This document shows, one piece after another, positions 2 through 59,346 of a DNA stretch of 64,000 nucleotides; position 1 is the first letter of the stretch, and the number at the start of each line of letters is the position of its first letter. Made by a program: the position numbers and the translations under genes. Below the pieces are notes generated by a model. The model did not search any database. It worked only from the letters and a program-made list of their open reading frames with translations, and had not been told where the DNA came from. Source of the stretch: Myxococcota bacterium (GTDB lineage: Bacteria > Myxococcota_A > UBA9160 > SZUA-336); assembly GCA_965247115.1 (NCBI GenBank), contig CBDFGR010000002.1:832001-896000 (forward strand), read 5' to 3'.

Positions 2-1024
2 AGCACTTCCCCCGCGGCCTGCGCGAACGTGGACTACGGGCGAGCGAATCTCGGGGCCGGAGCCGATCCCGCGACGAAGCCCAACCCGGACGGCCCCACC
101 CTGGTGGGAGCCGGGGTTTTCGTCACGCAGCTGCGCGCGCTCGACGCGGTTCGCGAGGAGTACGCGTTTCGGGGTCACGTGAGGGCGACCTGGTGCGATC
201 CGCGACTCGCCTACGACCCGGACGAGGTCGGTACGCTGGAGCGCGTCTACATCGGCGGGAACGAACAGCGAGAGAGAGAACGCATCTGGTGGCCCTCCGG
301 ATTCCCCGTTAACCGCGCGGGCTCGTTCGAGGTCACGGAGCGCGTGGTGCGCGTCGCCCCGGACGGCACCGTGCACAACGACATCAACCTAAGCGTACAG
401 GTGCACGCGGACTTGGACCTGCGCCGCTTCCCCTTCGACCACCAGCGACTCGAGCTGGTGATTGAGTCGACTCGCTGGCAGGTCGACGATTTGGTGTTCG
501 TAGCAGACCAGACGACGACGGGCTTCGCGCAGGACTTCACCATGCAGGAGTGGCAGCTTGTCGGCGTGAGCAGCCGCGTCGAGGAAGTCGCTTCGGTTCG
601 AGGCGCAAGACCGTTTTCCCGCTTCCTCTTCGAGATCGATGTGGAGCGCCAAGCGGGCTTCTACCTGTGGAAGGTGATGCTGCCGATCCTCATCATCGTG
701 GCCATTTCGTGGTCGGTCTTCTGGATGACCGACGAAAGACTTGCCGGTCGGAGCCGCATCACTGCCAGCGGCGTCCTGACCGTGGTCGCCTACCAGTTCG
801 TGATTGCCGACGGACTGCCACGGATCGCCTACCTCACGGTGCTCGACAAGATGATGCTGGTGTCGTTTGCCTTGCTGTCGGTGACGGTGCTGCAGAGCAT
901 GCTGGTCGCGCGCTACAACGAATCGTCTCCCGAGACCGCAGTGCTCATCGACCGGACGTCGCGTTGGCTGTTTCCCCTCGTGTACGCGCTTCTGCTTGCA
1001 GGGTACGCGTTCGGCGGCGGATAG
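2..1024 (+). CDS. Prokaryotic pentameric ligand-gated ion channel (ELIC/GLIC-like); 5' end probably outside window
   Basis: W-x-DPRL, IWWP, Pro-loop DLRRFPFDHQ, R..GFYLWKV-M1, M2 VLTVVAYQF, LPRIAYLT-M3, IDR.SRWLFP-M4; frame is open from position 2. Confidence 0.92.
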   Translation, partial: STSPAACANVDYGRANLGAGADPATKPNPDGPTLVGAGVFVTQLRALDAVREEYAFRGHVRATWCDPRLAYDPDEVGTLERVYIGGNEQRERERIWWPSGFPVNRAGSFEVTERVVRVAPDGTVHNDINLSVQVHADLDLRRFPFDHQRLELVIESTRWQVDDLVFVADQTTTGFAQDFTMQEWQLVGVSSRVEEVASVRGARPFSRFLFEIDVERQAGFYLWKVMLPILIIVAISWSVFWMTDERLAGRSRITASGVLTVVAYQFVIADGLPRIAYLTVLDKMMLVSFALLSVTVLQSMLVARYNESSPETAVLIDRTSRWLFPLVYALLLAGYAFGGG

Positions 1025-30310: not shown

Positions 30311-31585
30311 CAGGCTGCGGAGAAAGTGACTGGTTGAGGGGTGGTCCTTCCGACGAGGGGGTTCACCGGCCGAGGGGCGGGGCGCGATTCCCGGTTCGAA
30401 CCGGTCTTGGGCTCCGCTGATCGCGGGGCGGTTTCGCACATGACCTACGTGGCCTCCAGCAGCTTGCGGATCCGGATCAGGTTGTAGGCTGCGGCCGTGA
30501 AGGTGAAGACCCAGCCGACCCGATCCGTGCCGCGGTGTCGGGTCTTGCGCATCAGCCCCACGGTCTTCATCCAGCCGAAGACCTCTTCCACCCGTTTGCG
30601 AAAACGCTGACTCAGTTCGTAGCCCCGGTGGCGCGTCGTCCGCCCGTCGATCGCGCTGCGTCGATTCGTCGTGTTCTGCGCCACGTGTGGGGTCACGCCC
30701 AACTCTCGAAGCTCTTCCACGAACCCCTTCGTGTCGAAGCCCTTGTCTCCGCCCAATGTCCTCCGACGCCCGCCTCCCAGACCTTCCACCATCTCGAGCG
30801 CCGCTTCGCGCTCCGCATATCCCGACGCCTGCGTGAGCTTCGCCGCGACCACCAAGCCGTTCCGGTTCTCCGTCACCACGTGTCCCTGGTACGCGAGTCG
30901 GGCGCCTTGGCCTCTCATACCGGCGAGTCGTGCGTCGGGATCCGTCGTCGACGCATGCGTCTGGTTGCTCCGCTTCTCGCCTCGGAAGTTCACCGTCGGG
31001 TTGCCCGGGTCATCGTCGTCTCTCCGTTCCTCGTCCTTCCGTACGAAGCTCTTCTGGCTCGCCCACGCCTCGATCAGCGTCCCGTCTACCGTGAAGTGCT
31101 CCAACGACACCCATCCCTCGGTCTCGGCCTGCTCCAGCACTGCGTCGAAGAAGTGCTCGGCAATCTCGCCCTTGAGCAGCCGGTCTCGGTTCTTCGTGAA
31201 CACCGTGGCGCTGAACACCACCTCGTCAAGCTCCAGACCCACGAACCAGCGATACAGCAGGTTGTACTCCAGCTGCTCCACCAGCTGCCGCTCGCTCCGG
31301 ATGGTGTAGAGCACCTGCAGCAGCAGGGCGCGCAGCAGCTGCTCCGGGGGCACGGACGGGCGCCCTACGCCTCTGGCGTAGATCGCGTCGAAGCGCGGCG
31401 ATAGCCGCTGCAGCGCCGTGTCGACCATGCGCCGCATCGCTCGAAGCGGATGATCATCCGGAATCCGCGACTCCAGCGACACGTAGCTGAACATCCCGCC
31501 CTGAAGCGTCCCCTGTCCTCTCACGCCTCCCCCTTTGGGGCTCGCTCCCAAGGTACCCTTCGATGAGGAGTTTTTCAGCAGCCTG
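30311..31585 (-). mobile_element. Complete IS5-family insertion sequence, 1275 bp, CTAG target duplication
   Basis: Terminal inverted repeats CAGGCTGCgGAgAAA / CAGGCTGCtGAaAAA (13/15 match); CTAG at 30307-30310 and 31586-31589. Confidence 0.93.
30445..31524 (-). CDS. IS5-family DDE transposase
   Basis: MFSYVSLE..IP.DHPLR, GRPSVPPE, VDGT, GDKGFD, RKRVEEVFG; GTG 31524 after GGGGAGG. Confidence 0.93.
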   Translation of the reverse strand: MRGQGTLQGGMFSYVSLESRIPDDHPLRAMRRMVDTALQRLSPRFDAIYARGVGRPSVPPEQLLRALLLQVLYTIRSERQLVEQLEYNLLYRWFVGLELDEVVFSATVFTKNRDRLLKGEIAEHFFDAVLEQAETEGWVSLEHFTVDGTLIEAWASQKSFVRKDEERRDDDDPGNPTVNFRGEKRSNQTHASTTDPDARLAGMRGQGARLAYQGHVVTENRNGLVVAAKLTQASGYAEREAALEMVEGLGGGRRRTLGGDKGFDTKGFVEELRELGVTPHVAQNTTNRRSAIDGRTTRHRGYELSQRFRKRVEEVFGWMKTVGLMRKTRHRGTDRVGWVFTFTAAAYNLIRIRKLLEAT

Positions 31586-31683
31586 CTAGGCCCCACCACG
31601 TGCGAAACAGCGCTACGAGTAGCCTTTTCTCCCGCCGCCCCCAAGTCGGGCGAACTGGGCTGGAATTTCCCACAAGGGGATTG

Positions 31684-49811: not shown

Positions 49812-50510
49812 TCACAGGGGTTTCACTGCCTTCTTCGCTGCGTCTCTGATCCGTTTCTCGTCCTGAAAATAGGTCTCCGGGGGTAGCGGGAAGAACTGCT
49901 GCCGCCTGCGCTCGAGCAGCACCTCGAGGCCGCCCCGGTTCGTGAACAGGAGCTTCTCGTTGCGGTCGAAGATGGAGATCGACACGGAAGAGGCGGCAAT
50001 CGTGCCCTTGAACCTGCCCGAGCCCTTGTTCTGGACTCTCTGTTTGGCGCCGTCCCACTTCGCCCTGTCGGCCTCGTACTCCGCGTTGACCACCTGAAGC
50101 CGGATGGCGACGACGGCATCCACCGGGTATCGGAACATCAGCTCGCGATAGCTGTGCTCGCGAACGGCCTGTGTGCGCGCGTTGTCGACCTGGCCGGTAC
50201 TCGCGTTCTGAACCCCCCCGACCTGCTGTTCCATCGTCGCTCTGAGCGTGCGAAGGACCGAGGCGGGGATGACCTCGTAGCCTCGCTTCTCGAGGTGCTT
50301 GGTGATCTCCCCCTGGACGATTACCTCGGCAGAGTCGGGCATTTGAAGCGCTGGCGCGGCATCGATGGGCGACAGTGCCACCACCTTGACGCGGCTCTTG
50401 AACAGCTTCTTGTCCATACGGAAGGGCGAATCGTCGGCCGCGGCCGCGGAGAACGCGAGCAACCCGCAGGTCGTAGTGATCGCCGTCAGGATTCTCGTCA
50501 GCTTCGCCAT
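49812..50510 (-). CDS. Secreted hypothetical protein, last gene of the S8-M48 operon
   Basis: Signal peptide ..SAAAA; starts 4 nt after the M48 stop. Confidence 0.7.
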   Translation of the reverse strand: MAKLTRILTAITTTCGLLAFSAAAADDSPFRMDKKLFKSRVKVVALSPIDAAPALQMPDSAEVIVQGEITKHLEKRGYEVIPASVLRTLRATMEQQVGGVQNASTGQVDNARTQAVREHSYRELMFRYPVDAVVAIRLQVVNAEYEADRAKWDGAKQRVQNKGSGRFKGTIAASSVSISIFDRNEKLLFTNRGGLEVLLERRRQQFFPLPPETYFQDEKRIRDAAKKAVKPL

Positions 50511-50514
50511 CCAC

Positions 50515-51735
50515 TCACCTCATGCTGTCCATGTACGCGCGGATGATGCCCGCGTCGGGGGCATCCTCCGCGAAGCTCAGGTACTGCTCGAACGCGCTCA
50601 TGGCCTCAGCGTTGGCGTGCTGTCTACGATGGGCCATCCCGAGCTCCTTGTAGGCGGGCGCGAAGCCGGAGTCCTTCTCCAGCGCTTTCCGGTAGCGATC
50701 CATACGCGGGGAATAGTCGGGTCCGTCGAGCGCCTCCTTGCGATAGGTCTCCCCGATCAGGAACTCGGCCTCCGGATCCTCCGGCCTCACCGAGATGTAC
50801 TTCGTCAGGGCCGCACGGGCCCGGGCATACTGCTGCTCCTGGATGTCGAGCCGAGCGTTGATGAGCAAGGCGGGCGCGATGCCCCGATAGTAGGACTCCG
50901 ACGCTGGAACCACTCCTGGCTTGTACGCCTGCTTGCTCCTCTTGCGCTCTCTCTTGATCTCTTTCTGGAGGTTCTTGATCCGGTCGTCCAGCTTCGGGTG
51001 GCTGCTCCAGAGCCGGGCTGGATCGGCCACGCCGTAGAACGAGTTGTCGCCAAGGGCCTGGAACCCGAGCAGCGCCTGGTCCCGGGAGTAGTTCGCCTTC
51101 GCCATCAGGACAAGGCCCTCCTCATCGGCCACGTACTCGAGCTTCCGCGAGTAGCCGTTCGTCACGAGGCCCGACCAGAGACCCTCGGTCGAGCCGATCA
51201 GATCGGTATCGATCACGCCCGTCTGCGAGGCCACGGCAACGGTCGCCAAGAGGCCGATCCCCTTGCCGATGATTGATTGCCGTCCCTCGGTGATGAGCTC
51301 GCGGTAGGAGTGACGCTGGAGAAAGTGGGAGATCTCGTGGGCCAGGATCGCGCCGAGCTGAGCCTCGTTTTCCATGCCGGCGAGGAGGCCGGTGTGAACG
51401 GCGATGGTCCCGTACGGGTAGACCCATCCGCCCAGCGTGGGCTCCCTGACCAGGATGAAGTCGAGGTGCATGCCGAGATGATCCAGGCTGGAGCCGAGCA
51501 TCCTGTCCGTGATGGACTCGAGATACGCCTCGACGTGCCGATTGTGGACCATCCTTCCACTGTTGCGCAGGTCATTCTCGTGTCGGCCGGCGATGTCCCA
51601 GAGCTCTGCTTCGTCCGCCTTCGCCGGCAGCTCCTCGAGCTCGGACACCGGATCCACCCTCGCCGCATTCGCCGCCGGCGAGAGAAAGCTGAGCAGAAGA
51701 GCTGCGATCGAAGACAGTCGAACTGCGCCGTTCAT
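50515..51735 (-). CDS. M48 metalloprotease with C-terminal TPRs (BepA/YfgC-like)
   Basis: NEAQLGAILAHEISH, YSR.LEY.AD, SSHP...RI, TPR helices; ATG overlaps the S8 stop (TGATG). Confidence 0.9.
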   Translation of the reverse strand: MNGAVRLSSIAALLLSFLSPAANAARVDPVSELEELPAKADEAELWDIAGRHENDLRNSGRMVHNRHVEAYLESITDRMLGSSLDHLGMHLDFILVREPTLGGWVYPYGTIAVHTGLLAGMENEAQLGAILAHEISHFLQRHSYRELITEGRQSIIGKGIGLLATVAVASQTGVIDTDLIGSTEGLWSGLVTNGYSRKLEYVADEEGLVLMAKANYSRDQALLGFQALGDNSFYGVADPARLWSSHPKLDDRIKNLQKEIKRERKRSKQAYKPGVVPASESYYRGIAPALLINARLDIQEQQYARARAALTKYISVRPEDPEAEFLIGETYRKEALDGPDYSPRMDRYRKALEKDSGFAPAYKELGMAHRRQHANAEAMSAFEQYLSFAEDAPDAGIIRAYMDSMR

Positions 51736-54053
51736 CACTTGATCCTCACCGGGTACACCGCGCGCTTCACGGTGCCATTCTTGTGTTCCACGTTGACCAC
51801 GAGCTGCCAGAGCTCGCTGCCGCTGAACTCTCTAAGGGAAATACTTCCCAGAGTGCCGTCGCGGACGGGAAACTTCAGCTTCCGTCCCACGGACTTCCAT
51901 CCAGCGGGGTTCTCTCCCGCGCCGATCTGCAGCCAGGCGCGCTTGAATATCTCCGCGTCCGCCGTTCCGCTGATCCGCAGCCTGCTCCCGCCGCCTTCCA
52001 CCTGGACGGACTGAACGCGATCGATCGCAGCGGTCACGAAGAACTCAGGATCCACGCTCAGCGCCGTCCGGGCATCCAGCATTCCGAAGCCCGCGTACTT
52101 GTCCTTGCCCGGAAACTCGATGTCTTCCGCCGTCTGGTACAGGATGCGCTCGACATCGCCTACAGTCAGCTCCGGGCTCCTCGCCAGAAGCAGTGACGCG
52201 GTGCCGGTCACGATCGGGGTCGAGAACGATGTCCCGCTGACGTGCAGATAGCGCTTGTCCTCACCGACGTAGTTCGTACCGATCTCGTACTCTTCCGTAC
52301 CCCGGTAGTTCGCATCGGTGTAGCGCGCCCTGAGGCTCAGGACGTCCACGCCAGGAGCCACCAGGTCCACGCGGTCGCCGAAGTTCGAGAAAGCGGCCGC
52401 GCGGTCGTCGGTGTGCGTCGCGCCGACGGTCAGGACGTGCTCGGCGCCAGCGGGGCCGTAGTCTTCCAGCTCGATGCCCTCGTTCCCGGATGCGACGACG
52501 ACCAGCACCCCCTTCTCGTGGGCGTAGTCAAGTGCCGCCTGCTCGATCCGGCTCGTGTGCGGCCCTCCAACGCTGATATTGATGATGCGGGCCCCGTTGT
52601 CCGCCGCGTAGACGATGGCTTCGGCGAGATAGGACGCCCGCGTGGTACCGAAGTTGTTGACCGCTTTCAGCACCATGAGTTTCGCGTGCGGGTTGATGCC
52701 GGCGATACCCGCATCGTTGTTCTGGCTGGCGGCGATGATCCCCCCGACCAAAGTGCCATGACCATCGAAGTCCCAGGGCTTGTTGTGACGACCGAAGAAG
52801 TCCCAGCCGATGATGTCGTCCACAAAGCCGTTGGCGTCGTCGTCGATCCCGTTGTCGGGAATCTCGTCCTCGTTGCGCCAGATGTTCTCGTAGCTGATGT
52901 CGAGGTGATGCCAGTCCAGACCGGTATCGATGACCGCCACCACGACGGGCGCGGCCGTGTCCGGCACCTGATTCCATGCCGAGCTCTCGTCAGCCGTGTA
53001 TCCAACGCGCTTGATGGCCCACTGGTCGTCCATGGGCTGCCCCCAGGAGCCGCCACCATGCCTGCCCGTCCTCTTATAGTTGGGATCCGTCGGAGTCAGC
53101 ACGATCCGACACCAGTCGTTCTCGAAGACGAACTCTGTTACGTAGAGCGTGTTGTAGACGAGACCCAGCTTCAGGTCCTCGAAGTTGAGGGTCGTGAACT
53201 GTCTGTCACCTATGGTGAGCTCGTTCCTGGAGAAACGGCTCAGGGAGTAATGTAGATCGCGCGCCGGCGCCTCGACGGTGATGCTGCCATAGCTGCGACG
53301 GGGCACTGTGAAGTTAAGTGCGTCTGACATCGCATCGGATCCCCCGATGTTCCAAGCGAACCCAGAACGCAGCTGGAACTGCGTATGGCCGTCGTAGCCG
53401 AACGTTCCCCTGATCGGATCTTCGCCCGAACCCTCGTCGGAAGCCTCTGAGTTCGGACCCTGGAAGGAGAAGTCGATGTCGGTGGGCAATACCACGTACT
53501 GCCGCGGGGGAACGTAGAGCTCGAGTTTCGAGGGATCCGGCTCGAGCTGGAGACCGACCCTGGGCGCCAGCTCGAAGCCGCCGTCCCCGTCGTACTGGGC
53601 CTTGGCTCCGAGCATGAGCTCCCCAAATACGTGCGACAAACCGCCATAGTAGAGGTACCCCGGGCCCTCGGAGTCCCACAGTGAACCCCGAGACTCCGCT
53701 CCCGAGCGCCCCCACTTCAGCTTGGAATCATAAGAGAGGTGGAAGTCTCCTGACTCGTTCCCGAGGGCGAAGTTCAGCTTGCCGTAGCCACTGACCAACC
53801 AGGTCGCATCATCCAACGGGGCCGGACTGTCCGTCCCCGCACGATTGCAATCGGCGTCTTGCGTTGCCGCGGCGAAAGCAATCTGCCCTAGTGGCCCGCG
53901 AAAGATCCACGAGCCATCCGTCGGCGAGCCCGGATCGGCAAACGATGCGCCCTCCGGTGTGAAGGCCTGGGTCAGGGACGCCGTGAGGAGCATCGAGATC
54001 ACGAGGCTTGCGGTGCCAGATCGCATAAGCGCACTCATCCGACGACCCCTCAT
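51735..54053 (-). CDS. Secreted S8 subtilase with about 300-aa atypical N-terminal region
   Basis: Triad VIDTG / DGHGT / SGTSFS, DDDANGFVDD Ca loop, C-terminal WLQIGAGENP..W domain. Confidence 0.9.
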   Translation of the reverse strand: MRGRRMSALMRSGTASLVISMLLTASLTQAFTPEGASFADPGSPTDGSWIFRGPLGQIAFAAATQDADCNRAGTDSPAPLDDATWLVSGYGKLNFALGNESGDFHLSYDSKLKWGRSGAESRGSLWDSEGPGYLYYGGLSHVFGELMLGAKAQYDGDGGFELAPRVGLQLEPDPSKLELYVPPRQYVVLPTDIDFSFQGPNSEASDEGSGEDPIRGTFGYDGHTQFQLRSGFAWNIGGSDAMSDALNFTVPRRSYGSITVEAPARDLHYSLSRFSRNELTIGDRQFTTLNFEDLKLGLVYNTLYVTEFVFENDWCRIVLTPTDPNYKRTGRHGGGSWGQPMDDQWAIKRVGYTADESSAWNQVPDTAAPVVVAVIDTGLDWHHLDISYENIWRNEDEIPDNGIDDDANGFVDDIIGWDFFGRHNKPWDFDGHGTLVGGIIAASQNNDAGIAGINPHAKLMVLKAVNNFGTTRASYLAEAIVYAADNGARIINISVGGPHTSRIEQAALDYAHEKGVLVVVASGNEGIELEDYGPAGAEHVLTVGATHTDDRAAAFSNFGDRVDLVAPGVDVLSLRARYTDANYRGTEEYEIGTNYVGEDKRYLHVSGTSFSTPIVTGTASLLLARSPELTVGDVERILYQTAEDIEFPGKDKYAGFGMLDARTALSVDPEFFVTAAIDRVQSVQVEGGGSRLRISGTADAEIFKRAWLQIGAGENPAGWKSVGRKLKFPVRDGTLGSISLREFSGSELWQLVVNVEHKNGTVKRAVYPVRIK

Positions 54054-54212
54054 GGGCCGCCCCGGCAGAGTATCTCACGAGACTCGGGGTCGGGTCGCTA
54101 CCCTTTCTGATAGCCAAACAAATCCCAGGAGTTACGGATTCAGACGCGTCGGCCCACGCGATTGCTCTACCATGGGGTGGCTGGGTAGTCGACTTGCCGC
54201 AAGGAGCTCGAG

Positions 54213-57200
54213 ATGACACTTGAAAAGGTGCCGGCGACGCCGCTGCTGGTGCTGCTGCTCGTATTTGGACTGAGTGCGCCGGGCTGGGCTGGCTTTAGGG
54301 TGAACACGCCCTCACCGATCACGGTCATCACTGGGGAAGAGGTGGAGCGGCTACCTGCTCGACCCATCACAGACTTCATGAGTCTGGTTCCTGGGGTCTC
54401 GAGCGGGACTGCCGGGGAGCCGACACGGTTTCTCGTAAATGGGATTCGTTCCCCCGAATCGGACCGTCTGATACCCAAGGACGATGTCGAGCGCATCGAG
54501 ATACTGAACGGTTCGACGGCGGCCACGTTGTACGGGGGGGAACTCACTGCCGACGTGATCAACTTCGTCACCAAGGACGACTATTCTGGATTCAACGTCG
54601 GTGGATCCTGGGTATTCCAGAACTTAATGAACTCTTTCAAGGATATCTGGATCTCGACGGAGAATGGCGGAGAGTGCGATACCACGAACGGTGAGCTCCG
54701 GTCTACCTTCACTTTGTTCGACCGTTACGACTTTGGAGGGCCCGACTTTGCGAACGGAGGCAACACGTGGCTGTGGGGAAGTCAGTCGCGGGGGTTTGTG
54801 CAAGGTGGGTATGGATACCCGAAACTCGGGCTTTCGTACCCGGACTTGAGAGACACCGAGTCCATGAAAAGGACCGGCTTCTCAGCTCTCGCGGCCCTGA
54901 CTGAGAGTGTAACGGGCGATCCGTCACTTTCTGAAGGAGCCAAGAGTGGCTTCATGGCTGGGCTGTCTATCGTGCTGGCGTACGGGCCGGATTCCCTGTC
55001 GGATCGGGCGCACAGCTTGGGCCACTTTGACCCTGTCGAGATCTACGGGCAGTTGAGCCAGTACTCGGCAAGTGGGGCCACTGGACCCGCGTTCACGCCA
55101 ACTCCGCAAACACAGACCGACGAAGTGGGTGGTGGCGAGCAACTACTGCCCCAACCGTTCGCGGGCTACAGAATACCCTCGAAGTATCTGTTTGAGAATC
55201 CGAATGATTGCCCGGAAGAGGTTGTGGACAGCGTGCGACCGCTGATCCGTGAGTGGGCTCAGGCTCGCGGTGGTATCAGCTACTCCATGGACTATCTGAG
55301 ATATCAGCTGCAGTCCGGCGGAGACACCGGGGAACAGGTGAGGAAGGCGGAAGAGGCACGCAAGCTGCGAGACCAGAAGAACAACGAGATCAACGATGCG
55401 CTGCGCACGTGCGTGCCTCAGACGGCATCAACGGAGGCATCTGCTCCCACAGCGACCTCCGGCGCTGAAGCACAGAGCGGCTCCTGGGGGCGCTGGAGCG
55501 ATGACTTGAAATTGCAGATCTACTTCTCCCGCAATGAACTGGGAGATGATGGGGCGGTCTACAAAGTACCCGCACCGGACGTTCGCGTAGGTCTCCACCC
55601 CTACAACCCTGATCTTGACGTTGGTATCCCGTGGGGCTTCCGGTCGTCCAGGGACACCGACAACGGGGCCAGCGAGGACGGACATAGCAAGATCACCGCG
55701 GCAGATGGAAGCGTCATCTTTGACATGGATTGGTACGATCCGGGCGTCGCTGCGGGCTTCAGAATGCCCACCGACCGGTCGCTGGTGGAATCGTACGAAA
55801 CGGGCGCAAAGTCGAACTGGACGGTGCGCGTGGACTGGGACACCAGCACGATCAAGCTCCGGTCGCACCTGGAGAAGACCGACAGCTTCGTTCAGCTGTT
55901 TGCGGGACAAGCCCAACAGGGCAGCGCCTCCATACAACATGTTCCAACAGGTCTCTTCGCGAATTATCTGTCGAACGAATTTCCTGTGGGCGGAAATCTC
56001 TATCGGGTATATGACAACATCCCGGAGTATCTCAACCTCGATCTGAGTCAATTGTATTCGATATCGGGACAGACGAGTGTCGAGAACAACTCCTGCGGCG
56101 AATCGGCCCTACCGCAGAATGGCCTCGGATACCTCAGCCAAGCAGCCTCGCCCGTCCAGTCGGTCGAGGACCAGTGGGCTCTGGAGCACGTCGGGTTGAC
56201 GGAAGATGCCGCGTTGTCGGAGACGACGTCCAGCGCTGCCGCGCCGATTGTGATCGGTGTCATCGACACCGGACTCGACTGGAACCATCTCGACTTTGCT
56301 TGGGAGAACATCTGGCGGAACGAAGACGAGATTCCCGACAACGGCGTCGACGATGATGGCAATGGCTACGTGGATGACATCATCGGCTGGGATTTCATGA
56401 ACCAGGACAACAAGCCCTGGGACAACGACGGACACGGGACGTTCGTGTCGGGGATCATCGCCGCGACGCACAACAACAGTGCTGGAATCGACGGGATCGA
56501 CCCGAACGCCAGGGTCATGGTGCTCAAGGCACTCAACAATTTCGGCCGTACGCGTGCCTCGTACGTCGCGCAGGCGATTGTGTACGGAGCCGACAACGGG
56601 GCCCACATCCTGAATGTGAGCGTCTCGGGCGGCGAGGTTCCCGGCGTTGTGATCGACGCCCTGGCCTACGCCATAGGCAAGGGCGTACTCGTGATCACAG
56701 CGGCGGGAAACAGGGGTGAGAATATCGACCGTGGCCCGCCGGGCGGGGTGCCAGGTGTCATGTCCGTGGCGGCGACGGGTCCCGACGGCAAGCGCGCGGC
56801 CTTCTCCAACGTCGGATCGTTGATCAACATCGCCGCGCCAGGGGTGGACATCGTGAGTCTTCGGGCTCGCCGCACGGACTTCATGCTGAACAGTGCCACG
56901 ACCACCTACCAGGCTCGCGATGCCTACCTGGGCGATGACAATCGCTACTACCGTTCAGCCGGAACGTCCTTCGCGACTCCTATCGTCAGCGGCATCGCCT
57001 CTCTGGTCTGGTCGAACCGGCCCGAGCTCACGGCGATACAGGTGCAACGGATCCTCGAGCAGTCGGCCCGAGACGTCGGGACGCCGGGCAGAGACCGCTT
57101 CACCGGCTACGGCGTCGTGGATGCACCGGCCGCTCTCGGGGCCGATCCCGAGTTCTTCGTGGAGGCCGCAATTCTCCAGGCCCGACCAGTGGAGGAGGAC

Positions 57201-57458
57201 GAGCAGGTCTTCGTCCAGGTCTTCGGCTCGGCGGATGCCAACCAGTTCGGCCGCGCGTGGCTCGAGATCGGCGAAGGGGAGGATCCATCCCACTGGATCC
57301 CGATAGGGGATGCTCTCCCCGACACGGTCAGGCTGGGAGTGCTCGGCATGATTCCCGCCGCCCAACTAGATGGCGCAAACGTCTGGACGGTCCGCGTGCT
57401 CGTGGAGCACCAAAACAGCCGGCTGCGAGAAGCGAGATACGTAATCGAGCTCGGATGA
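54213..57458 (+). CDS. Secreted S8 subtilase fused to an N-terminal TonB-receptor plug and about 500 aa of unassigned sequence
   Basis: Plug motifs PITVIT.EE..., IP..DVERIEILNG..A.LYG....VINFVTK; triad VIDTG / DGHGT / AGTSFA. Confidence 0.88.
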   Translation: MTLEKVPATPLLVLLLVFGLSAPGWAGFRVNTPSPITVITGEEVERLPARPITDFMSLVPGVSSGTAGEPTRFLVNGIRSPESDRLIPKDDVERIEILNGSTAATLYGGELTADVINFVTKDDYSGFNVGGSWVFQNLMNSFKDIWISTENGGECDTTNGELRSTFTLFDRYDFGGPDFANGGNTWLWGSQSRGFVQGGYGYPKLGLSYPDLRDTESMKRTGFSALAALTESVTGDPSLSEGAKSGFMAGLSIVLAYGPDSLSDRAHSLGHFDPVEIYGQLSQYSASGATGPAFTPTPQTQTDEVGGGEQLLPQPFAGYRIPSKYLFENPNDCPEEVVDSVRPLIREWAQARGGISYSMDYLRYQLQSGGDTGEQVRKAEEARKLRDQKNNEINDALRTCVPQTASTEASAPTATSGAEAQSGSWGRWSDDLKLQIYFSRNELGDDGAVYKVPAPDVRVGLHPYNPDLDVGIPWGFRSSRDTDNGASEDGHSKITAADGSVIFDMDWYDPGVAAGFRMPTDRSLVESYETGAKSNWTVRVDWDTSTIKLRSHLEKTDSFVQLFAGQAQQGSASIQHVPTGLFANYLSNEFPVGGNLYRVYDNIPEYLNLDLSQLYSISGQTSVENNSCGESALPQNGLGYLSQAASPVQSVEDQWALEHVGLTEDAALSETTSSAAAPIVIGVIDTGLDWNHLDFAWENIWRNEDEIPDNGVDDDGNGYVDDIIGWDFMNQDNKPWDNDGHGTFVSGIIAATHNNSAGIDGIDPNARVMVLKALNNFGRTRASYVAQAIVYGADNGAHILNVSVSGGEVPGVVIDALAYAIGKGVLVITAAGNRGENIDRGPPGGVPGVMSVAATGPDGKRAAFSNVGSLINIAAPGVDIVSLRARRTDFMLNSATTTYQARDAYLGDDNRYYRSAGTSFATPIVSGIASLVWSNRPELTAIQVQRILEQSARDVGTPGRDRFTGYGVVDAPAALGADPEFFVEAAILQARPVEEDEQVFVQVFGSADANQFGRAWLEIGEGEDPSHWIPIGDALPDTVRLGVLGMIPAAQLDGANVWTVRVLVEHQNSRLREARYVIELG

Positions 57459-57477
57459 CAGCCGGAGAGGAACAAAG

Positions 57478-59346
57478 ATGAAGTGGTTTGGTTTGGCATC
57501 TCTCGTCGTTGCGGTGTCGCTGCCGATGGTGAGCCGCGCGCAAGTGACGTCCGACCGGTGGCTCTTCCTGTTCGAGCAGCGGTGCGCGGTCTGTCATGGA
57601 ACCGAGAGCTTGGTTCCCAACGCGGTCAGTCGCGAAGCGTTCAGAATGTTCTCCCCGGAGCGGGTGCTCGAGGCGCTGACGACCGGCTCGATGGCGCCCA
57701 ACGCGAGCGCCCTGACAGATGAGGAGAAGCGCGGCTTGGCCGAGTACGTGACCGGTCGTCCCTTCGGCAACGTGGCGGACCGCTCTGCGCAAGCCATGCC
57801 GAACCGCTGCGGCCCTGACCTGGCGATGGGCGATCCGTCGACCGGCCCGCGCTGGAACGGGATGAGCCCCGATCCCACGACGAGCGCGCGCTTTCAGTCT
57901 GCGGCTGCCGCAGGGCTCTCGGCCGAGCAGGTGCCGCGACTGCGGCGCAAGTGGGCGTTTGGATTTCCGGATGGCAGTGCGGTCCGGGGCCAGCCGACGG
58001 TGGTCGGCGGTCGGGTGTTCATGGGCAGCGACAACGGAATGGTGTACGCGCTCGACGCGCGCAGCGGCTGCGTGCACTGGTCCTTCGAGGCAGGGAAAGC
58101 GGTGGTGACGGCCGTCAGCGTAGGGACGGTGCCCGGCACGCGCGATCGCTACGCGGCCTATTTCGGGGACTACCGGGCGAACGTGCACGCGGTCGACGCC
58201 GAGACGGGCGAGCAGCTGTGGACGACGCGCGTGGACGAACACGAGACGACGTACATCACGGGCTCGCCGGTGCTCGACAGCAAGGGCGAGCGCCTCTATG
58301 TGCCAGTTGGTTCATGGGAGGAAGGTCCCGGCCTGGCCAACCCAACGTACGAGTGCTGCACGTCGCAGGGCAGCGTACTGGCCTTGGACGCGAAGAGCGG
58401 ACGGCAGATCTGGAAGACATACACGATCCCCGAGCGCCCCCGGCCGATCAGGAAGAACTCCATCGGCACGCAGCTCTACGGCCCAGCGGGTGCCGGGGTC
58501 TGGGCGGCGCCCACGCTCGACTACAGGCGCGGGGTCCTCTACGTCGGTACGGCCAACGGCTATATCGATGTGCCGGATGCGGGATCCAGTGACGCCATCA
58601 TTGCCTTCGACCTCGACACCGGCGAGAGGCGCTGGTCGACCCAGCTGCTGGCCGGCGATTTGAACTGCCCAGGACTCTTAAGTGATGCGCGCCGGACACT
58701 CTGTCCCGGCTTCGTCATGACTGCCAACGACGATGTGTCCGGGTCTCCGGTCCTGTACACGCTGCCGAACGGTCGCCAGATCCTGATTGCGGGGCAGGAG
58801 AGCGGAAGAATCACGGCCCTGGATCCCGACAACAACGGCGCGGTGCTGTGGGTGGCGCAGGCAGGGGACGTATTGGAGACCCCGGCACGAGGCTCAGGCA
58901 TGGGAGCCGCCGCGGATGGAGAGCTCTACTACAGGTCCATCGCACTACCCGACCAGGCCGGTGGGATGGCCGCGCTCCGACCCGCGACGGGCGAGCGGAT
59001 CTGGTACACCACCCACCCGAAGCCCACGAACTGCTCCGACCCCGAGGCGGACTGGTGTAGCTCGGGACTGTTCGGGGCGGCAACGGTCATCCCCGGCGTC
59101 GTTTTCGCAGGGGCGAGAGATGGCACGCTGCGCGCGTACTCGACGGACGACGGCGAGATCTTGTGGGAATATCACACGATGCAGGAGTACGAGACGGTGA
59201 ACGGCGTCCGGGCCAAGGGGGGCTCGATCAGCGGCCATGGGCCGGCGATCGTCGGGGGCATGCTATTCATGGGCTCCGGGTACAGTGTTGGCTCGGGAGC
59301 GTCGGTACGGCCGGGGAACGTCCTCATCGCATTTGGCGTCGAGTAG
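57478..59346 (+). CDS. Quinohemoprotein (cytochrome c + PQQ), polyvinyl-alcohol-dehydrogenase-like
   Basis: CAVCH heme motif, KWAFGFP, YECCT..G, GAGVW..P, Trp-docking repeats. Confidence 0.88.
   Translation: MKWFGLASLVVAVSLPMVSRAQVTSDRWLFLFEQRCAVCHGTESLVPNAVSREAFRMFSPERVLEALTTGSMAPNASALTDEEKRGLAEYVTGRPFGNVADRSAQAMPNRCGPDLAMGDPSTGPRWNGMSPDPTTSARFQSAAAAGLSAEQVPRLRRKWAFGFPDGSAVRGQPTVVGGRVFMGSDNGMVYALDARSGCVHWSFEAGKAVVTAVSVGTVPGTRDRYAAYFGDYRANVHAVDAETGEQLWTTRVDEHETTYITGSPVLDSKGERLYVPVGSWEEGPGLANPTYECCTSQGSVLALDAKSGRQIWKTYTIPERPRPIRKNSIGTQLYGPAGAGVWAAPTLDYRRGVLYVGTANGYIDVPDAGSSDAIIAFDLDTGERRWSTQLLAGDLNCPGLLSDARRTLCPGFVMTANDDVSGSPVLYTLPNGRQILIAGQESGRITALDPDNNGAVLWVAQAGDVLETPARGSGMGAAADGELYYRSIALPDQAGGMAALRPATGERIWYTTHPKPTNCSDPEADWCSSGLFGAATVIPGVVFAGARDGTLRAYSTDDGEILWEYHTMQEYETVNGVRAKGGSISGHGPAIVGGMLFMGSGYSVGSGASVRPGNVLIAFGVE

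Follow-up and report, generated by a model that had tools for sequence, protein, structure and literature searches.

The fusion of a TonB-dependent receptor (TBDT) plug domain to an S8 subtilase is real and conserved. In the 64,000-nucleotide stretch of DNA analysed (the window), one gene, p1, encodes such a protein, in which the plug is predicted to head a pro-region of about 600 residues. A plug is usually treated as working only inside its barrel; in p1 it has been retained on a soluble enzyme that has no barrel. The features of p1 were as follows.

54213..57458, + strand: p1, Plug-S8 subtilase precursor, 1081 aa (ORF translation, Pfam, AlphaFold model)
54213..54290, + strand: Sec-type signal peptide, aa 1-26, judged from the sequence by eye; no lipobox
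54303..54578, + strand: TBDT plug domain, aa 31-122 (Pfam, model, Foldseek); ERIE arginine present, RG strand absent
54588..54812, + strand: small Cys-containing domain, aa 126-200; invariant C155 at 54675-54677
54846..55067, + strand: helical repeat unit, aa 212-285 (model); 0 to 4 copies detected in relatives
55146..55418, + strand: long helical hairpin, aa 312-402, with C333 and C400 at its flanks (model)
55494..55742, + strand: beta-sandwich, aa 428-510 (model)
55875..56108, + strand: I9-like propeptide, aa 555-632 (structure comparison); invariant C628 at 56094-56096
56109..57152, + strand: S8 catalytic domain; triad D685, H741, S919; oxyanion N833
57153..57455, + strand: C-terminal FN3/Ig-like domain, aa 981-1081 (structure comparison, Z 8.6-9.1)

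Domain architecture and continuity of p1

The original prediction had read a plug consensus directly after the signal peptide and proposed a PF07715 scan as a check. This reading was borne out: the peptides that it quoted lie inside the ORF, and in the Pfam scan Plug (PF07715) matched aa 31-109 with E 1.1e-9 and 39.2 bits, the curated cut-off being 23.9, while Peptidase_S8 matched aa 679-967. The plug is not free-standing, as had been stated, being the first of about eight domains. Foldseek with the plug model gave TBDTs in 50 of the 50 matches listed (best E, 4.3e-4), with PfeA (6r1f) at an rmsd of 2.5 over 123 columns. The ESM Atlas returned plug clusters for aa 27-640 (under 0.9), in a VIA search aa 27-427 matched nothing but generic helical hairpins, with Z values no higher than 9.6, and the PDB sequence search yielded no match. 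Judged from sequence and model together, the N-terminal domain is a genuine TBDT plug, and the plug is derived from a TBDT gene.

As in the TBDTs CirA, PirA, PfeA, FepA, BtuB and SusC, plug fold and motifs follow the signal peptide in p1, but these receptors have a 22-strand barrel and a C-terminal aromatic residue, whereas p1 lacks both as well as a TonB-box-like motif, and carries a protease precursor after the plug. No barrel family matched p1 at E<=0.1 in the Pfam scan. In the AlphaFold model of aa 27-1081 (49-row alignment; pTM 0.79), the stretch from plug to protease contained 15 mostly short strands in separate patches, with about 230 residues of helix and linker between them, and therefore no 22-strand barrel. 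A complete barrel at this place, the objection foreseen in the original prediction, thus appeared in neither the scan nor the model. The claim that the protein ends in a subtilase and not in a barrel with a terminal Phe held for the barrel and for the Phe (the last residue is Gly, not an aromatic), but the C terminus is an FN3-like domain. Lacking both 22-strand barrel and terminal aromatic, p1 was ruled out as a TBDT. It was likewise ruled out as an autotransporter subtilase, since the C-terminal translocator barrel is absent and the last 100 residues form an FN3-like sandwich.

Public contigs from three of four studies matched positions 51700-54770 and 54765-57500 at about 97 to 98% identity, and none of those compared spanned the junction near 54770. 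This gap, together with one frameshifted TBDT elsewhere in the host genome (C3:2506309-2508385), is what speaks for p1 being an assembly chimera or itself a frameshifted TBDT. However, the full-length homologue P0001 (96% identity to p1 over 1081 aa) and the homologue P0002 (69% over p1 aa 27-660) are both continuous, and the same architecture was present in 37 independent full-length homologues, which refutes a chimera and leaves these explanations a practically nil probability. Because independent full-length homologues are continuous, the continuity of p1 is accepted, and the gene is no artefact. On the assembly break named beforehand as a refuting condition, the contigs cover both sides of the junction without bridging it, and the homologues show the same architecture. 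The strains in three public runs have in common a 3-base insertion upstream of p1 (54186) and, where the plug begins (54303), a 12-base deletion that keeps the frame.

Pro-region, conservation and origin of the plug

By every testable feature of sequence and model p1 is an S8A subtilase precursor, with predicted activity. Structure comparison of aa 555-976 with unprocessed pro-subtilisin E gave a Z of 38.9 (rmsd 2.5, 342 residues aligned), and the I9-like propeptide plus catalytic domain reached Z values of 36.7-40.3 against S8A pro-subtilisins, despite the lack of a Pfam I9 match in p1. The triad was intact in 35 of 35 aligned relatives, and oxyanion N833 was invariant (18/18). With the S8A pro-subtilisins (pro-subtilisin E, 3whi; ProN-Tk-SP, 3afg; fervidolysin, 1r6v; MCP-01, 3vv3) p1 shares the I9-like propeptide, the catalytic domain, the triad and a C-terminal beta-sandwich, whereas it adds about 530 residues before the I9 domain, an N-terminal plug and an invariant cysteine at the putative P5 position. 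Another difference is that the p1 family includes naturally split members, in which a separate cargo gene encodes the propeptide.

Judging from where the subtilisin propeptide ends, we take C628 to be P5 and cleavage to occur after A632. p1 would thus cleave itself at this point, and because cleavage is placed there, everything from the plug to A632 counts as pro-region. C155 and C628 were both kept in 35 of 35 aligned full-length relatives (an alignment of Plug+S8 rows, from which fragments, P0002, P0003 and two non-plug rows were dropped). p1 has four cysteines, whereas its paralogue p2 has only two (C69 and C315), at matching places. The Cys domain was modelled with a pLDDT of 78-86 alongside the protease half versus 42-51 without it, the two values coming from different alignments. 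A C155-C628 disulfide probably ties the end of the plug to the propeptide tail, and a C333-C400 disulfide may bracket the hairpin. The beta-sandwich is, by resemblance, presumably prealbumin/carboxypeptidase-regulatory-like. Helical repeat, hairpin and beta-sandwich were occupied in 20, 30 and 33 of the 35 rows, respectively, so that each can be lost, and the shortest members (731-759 aa) retain plug, cysteine and propeptide.

The plug might have become a component of the propeptide that acts only within the molecule, assisting folding or covering the active site as a lid, with no TonB or barrel link left. In keeping with this, plug and I9 domain are equally constant, and the plug lies about 30 residues from C155, itself presumed to be near the active site; the whole-chain pTM suggests a compact arrangement, and TBDT-specific motifs have been lost from p1. 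However, plug pLDDT was lower in the aa 27-1081 model (56-76) than when aa 27-427 were folded alone (66-89), the plug is absent from the sister p2 clade and from most of the wider subtilase family, and its barrel-facing arginines are mostly kept. On balance we hold this role to be rather unlikely.

TonB boxes are degenerate. The motif pattern used, a regex, found no TonB-box-like motif ahead of the p1 plug; it had 8 matches in 41 relatives, one of them inside the plug, leaving 7 credible, so that 7/41 fusion-plug members, P0054 and P0061 among them, keep such a motif. With this motif absent and the RG strand lost, p1 ranks among the more eroded plugs, although the ERIE arginine is retained. 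Two plug arginines, which we take to pair with the barrel wall in TBDTs, were kept in 37 and 32 of 41 fusion plugs, compared with 33 and 30 of 33 TBDT plugs, and G77 and G108 were invariant in the fusion plugs (41/41). Mean identity to relatives was 31% for the plug versus 65% for the catalytic domain, and the ligand-contacting loops were the least conserved part of the plug and are shortened in p1. This state of the loops counts against a plug acting as a soluble sensor of a ligand (metal chelate or peptide) that gates protease activation, as does the absence of iron- or metal-uptake genes from the cluster. For its part, the isolated FepA plug is unfolded and still binds ferric enterobactin, at 5 uM, according to the accessible part of PMC11658791, which would agree with a sensor; we nevertheless consider one highly improbable.

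The search for Plug+S8 architectures without a barrel, also proposed at the outset, gave 38 such proteins in one clade, together with N-truncated P0003, which retains the second half of the plug (support 0.995 in a protease-core-only tree of 108 sequences). Searching 50%-identity representatives with p1 aa 27-660 yielded 43 matches, 12 of them full-length Plug+S8 proteins without a barrel (the domain scan behind these 12 covered 33 of the 43 and three others), while among the 97 proteins retrieved with aa 860-1081, Plug was present in 34 and PF00593 in none. One of the plug-bearing members has the name Woeseiaceae. The prediction had offered an exapted plug or a receptor captured by fusion; both fit and do not exclude each other, but since the plug is kept in every clade member, exaptation is favoured over a one-off accident, with a partner that is only presumed.

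This retention also bears on whether the plug is neutral baggage, an ancestral TBDT remnant on an insertion-tolerant pro-region that is discarded after maturation. The great variability of the pro-regions and their uptake of foreign pieces, the erosion of the p1 plug and the resemblance of two more distant proteins, L095 and L026, to decayed TBDT-S8 mosaics would all suit such a remnant. However, the plug persists through a clade whose C-terminal regions, closest relatives aside, are only about 47-63% identical to p1, and the two glycines stay invariant while neighbouring modules are freely lost, making mere baggage improbable.

In a later tree of 101 sequences, plug-bearing L095 was placed at the base of the p2 clade (support 0.996) and L026, with a decayed plug of 14.7 bits, in a distant branch; therefore, the Plug-S8 fusion probably arose more than once. 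TBDT plugs were the only matches of the p1 N terminus in tblastn. The fusion plugs interleave with three TBDT plug types, and their monophyly was rejected by a fast search (AU p=0.014) but not by a thorough one (p=0.052 and 0.096), for which 5-6 near-duplicate or partial rows were dropped. Conflict with the S8 tree was larger for the plug (dlnL 152) than for controls (69 and 37), all three rejecting the S8 tree. These comparisons are suggestive only of repeated plug replacement from different TBDT subfamilies. A search of 400 other genomes of the phylum did not find the p1 N-terminal region in any of them, which suggests that it was acquired horizontally. Against the host's own ORFs, N-terminal regions gave only plug matches and one unrelated match, and thus no local donor.

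The S8 N termini at L095:8153-11305 and L026:2627-5629 seem to be patched together from TBDT plug and barrel-like segments, and a coiled-coil insertion splits the plug of L026. Neither of them matched plasmids in tblastn.

Gene cluster and the variable slot of p2

p1 stands head-to-head with a second subtilase gene, p2, followed by two further genes on the same strand as p2.

51735..54053, - strand: p2, head-to-head paralogous subtilase, 772 aa, without a plug (Pfam, ORF)
53559..53816, - strand: variable slot of p2, aa 80-165, in-frame 86-aa foreign TBDT piece (sequence match)
50515..51738, - strand: M48 metalloprotease with TPR repeats, HExxH intact; BepA-like, far under the BepA cut-off
49812..50510, - strand: 232-aa protein with signal peptide (ORF; no Pfam family)

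p2 is 52% identical to p1 over the core. DNA was available for six Plug-S8 loci (the window, L027, L028, L029, L086 and L095, of which L027, L028 and L029 end early). A head-to-head p2-like gene was present in 4/6, the M48-TPR gene in 4/6 (the remaining two contigs end first) and the 232-aa gene in 3/6; in L046 the same three genes adjoin a plug-less S8. Homologues of the 232-aa protein, with 41-46% identity in three other loci, always came after the M48-TPR gene. In the ESM Atlas this protein matched hypothetical clusters, with CsgG at rank 25 (35% of members), and a CsgG/FlgO-like fold is only a lead. None of the six loci contained a dedicated plug-less barrel gene, and no toxin domain or adjacent immunity gene was recognised by Pfam or NCBIfam. 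The original prediction had overlooked the place of the plug on a pro-region, the recurrent four-gene cluster and the TBDT barrel fragments of the partner.

The slot of p2 was 72% identical (65/90) to aa 316-404 of Oar-type TBDTs, and a search with the p2 N terminus gave 112 proteins, of which 78 were non-S8 and TBDT-type; Pfam domains assigned 77 of these to that type, and two carry the name Aminicenantes. A 97%-identical relative carries the same insert; in the closest orthologues of p2 the slot sequence is unrelated and its length also varies, and the insert had no match in 200 class genomes. The slot is thus a clear in-frame capture of a short foreign membrane-protein fragment, and suggests a way, not yet described, in which secreted proteases come to vary. 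Similarly, PF00593 matched part of the L027 partner at 30.6 bits, which is over the cut-off, and the barrel piece of the L028 partner was weaker (E 0.002). When N-terminal regions were compared with 37 TBDT sequences, 4/139 matched at E<0.01, versus 0-1 in six shuffles; the three strongest were the p2, L027 and L028 partners, the p2 match being circular because its donors were included in the set. The barrel pieces come from different strands and therefore cannot form one conserved interface. Porin- or OMP-like pieces were seen in P0057, P0059, P0074 and P0104. Amphipathic strands were enriched (p<0.05) in only 2/19 partner slots, 10 of the 29 partners having been left out with slots not delimited or mis-cut, and a general signal of this kind was dropped.

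Nine loci of the wider family showed a split form, in which a cargo gene ends in the propeptide cysteine motif and is followed by a separate S8 gene, with its own visible signal peptide in 7/9.

L040:7641-11356, L044:7893-11290, L060:7086-11329 and six more: split-form loci, cargo gene plus S8 gene

The cargo of L040 and L044 bears an HExxH metalloprotease-like motif, and cargo of the wider family is also PLA2-, M91- and HExxH-like. The split genes therefore make the pro-region an exchangeable carrier: related subtilases bear other cargo in it, and that of the p1 branch derives from TBDTs.

Genes beside other S8 members (L001:4678-6009, L023:9514-10572, L024:9063-10538, L035:4303-5745 and L040:5873-7204) encode an N-terminal beta-sandwich plus an apparent outer-membrane barrel ending in Phe or Tyr. 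No Pfam barrel match was obtained for the four of these products scanned or near-scanned.

The variable cargo raises the possibility of a conflict system, in which TBDT pieces would be baits for phage or bacteriocin receptor-binding proteins, or would route a load (protease or helical cargo) into competitors, with the M48-TPR and 232-aa proteins as processing or immunity factors. In line with this are the slot varying among close orthologues, its foreign piece missing from the class relatives, the porin-like pieces in P0059 and P0074, the p1 N-terminal region confined to one genome among those of the phylum searched, and the enzyme-like cargo of the wider family. According to the accessible parts of PMC3482391 and PMC12330581, S8 peptidases process polymorphic toxins (S8-Ntox35 in the latter being one linked to S8), which likewise combine an S8 peptidase with variable secreted cargo; in the p1 family, however, cargo sits at the N terminus and is attached to the propeptide, and no toxin or immunity domain was recognised. 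The few TBDT matches among N-terminal regions, albeit against a small TBDT set, and the scarce amphipathic enrichment also count against it. Moreover, the plug is mostly buried within real receptors and would thus make a poor decoy. Overall, a conflict system seems distinctly unlikely.

Possible roles of the plug

The host genome encodes TonB and 17 full-length TBDTs, so TBDT/TonB-dependent passage of the outer membrane is possible there. We tentatively favour a role of the plug as a handle by which the zymogen docks at, or is trafficked to, the outer membrane; this role is plausible yet short of probable. p1 would leave the cytoplasm by Sec export, and its plug would then dock the zymogen on TBDT/TonB machinery, the presumed binding partner, for placement, export or activation. 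The C155-C628 disulfide would join the propeptide tail, beside the active site, to the end of the plug; through it, pulling on the plug or binding to it could keep the inhibitor in place or free it.

This handle would agree with the presence of a plug in 38/39 clade members, the 39th being truncated and keeping half of it, with the retention of plug, cysteine and propeptide while other modules are losable, and with the mostly kept barrel-facing arginines and occasional TonB-box-like motif. The Cys domain is confidently modelled only alongside the protease half, the neighbours are envelope proteins, and head-to-head partners bear TBDT barrel pieces. By contrast, p1 itself has neither TonB-box-like motif nor RG strand, the plug is far less conserved than the catalytic domain, and the partner pieces offer no single conserved interface. 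Nor was a plug-less barrel seen in the six loci; the only plug-less PF00593 match in the host genome is an internally deleted remnant, and the host TBDTs are already filled by their own plugs. As for plugs outside barrels, the isolated HasR plug can fold alone (accessible part of PMC13670019), whereas that of FepA, as mentioned above, is unfolded.

PopC is a subtilisin-like protease. In Myxococcus xanthus its secretion depends on the TBDT Oar and a Ton system, according to the accessible text of PMC6434023. This sets a precedent for a protease that relies on a TBDT and TonB to cross the outer membrane, as is proposed by analogy for p1. However, PopC lacks a signal peptide, and that text mentions no plug in it, whereas p1 has both; and Oar is an intact TBDT, whereas all matches to the Oar-type barrel (PF25183) in the p1 host genome were below the cut-off. 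With its visible signal peptide and these PF25183 values, p1 was ruled out as a member of the PopC/Oar type.

Handle and captured pieces might be combined in a mobile two-subtilase system that recruits outer-membrane receptor gene pieces as cargo, with a TonB-triggered zymogen. The plug of one zymogen would be refreshed from different TBDT subfamilies and the slot of the other would capture foreign barrel strands; the pieces would direct the proteases to TBDT/TonB machinery or serve as bait for receptor-binding proteins, and plug force or binding would pass through the disulfide to the propeptide. We regard this wider system as unlikely.

Barrel-less plugs are not unique to p1, as P0039 (M56+Plug by Pfam) is another such fusion, of the M56/BlaR1-Plug type. 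In both, the plug lies outside a barrel, but only that of p1 is N-terminal on a zymogen pro-region and accompanied by a second subtilase, an M48-TPR protein and captured barrel pieces. In the literature searched, with supplements and most subscription papers lying outside it, neither Plug+S8 nor the barrel-fragment slot nor the four-gene cluster was found described. The self-cleavage and activity predicted for p1 offer an easy read-out for whether a free plug docks on barrels or TonB. They also make it testable whether TBDT machinery handles secreted proteins by a plug-like signal, a question open after the PopC/Oar work.

Elsewhere in the host genome, two near-identical plug remnants were noted (C2:2093779-2094831 and C2:1807926-1808549), together with an internally deleted barrel remnant beside an intact TBDT (C2:1985315-1986862). 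The window contained no tRNA genes and no meaningful repeats beyond the p1/p2 paralogy. A DDE transposase gene (30448-31644, - strand; DUF772 plus DDE_Tnp_1) adjoins genes for an M23 peptidase and a FadL-type outer-membrane protein, and positions 29-1021 (+ strand) encode a homologue of prokaryotic pentameric ligand-gated ion channels, with a Neur_chan_LBD match of 80 bits and a membrane region.
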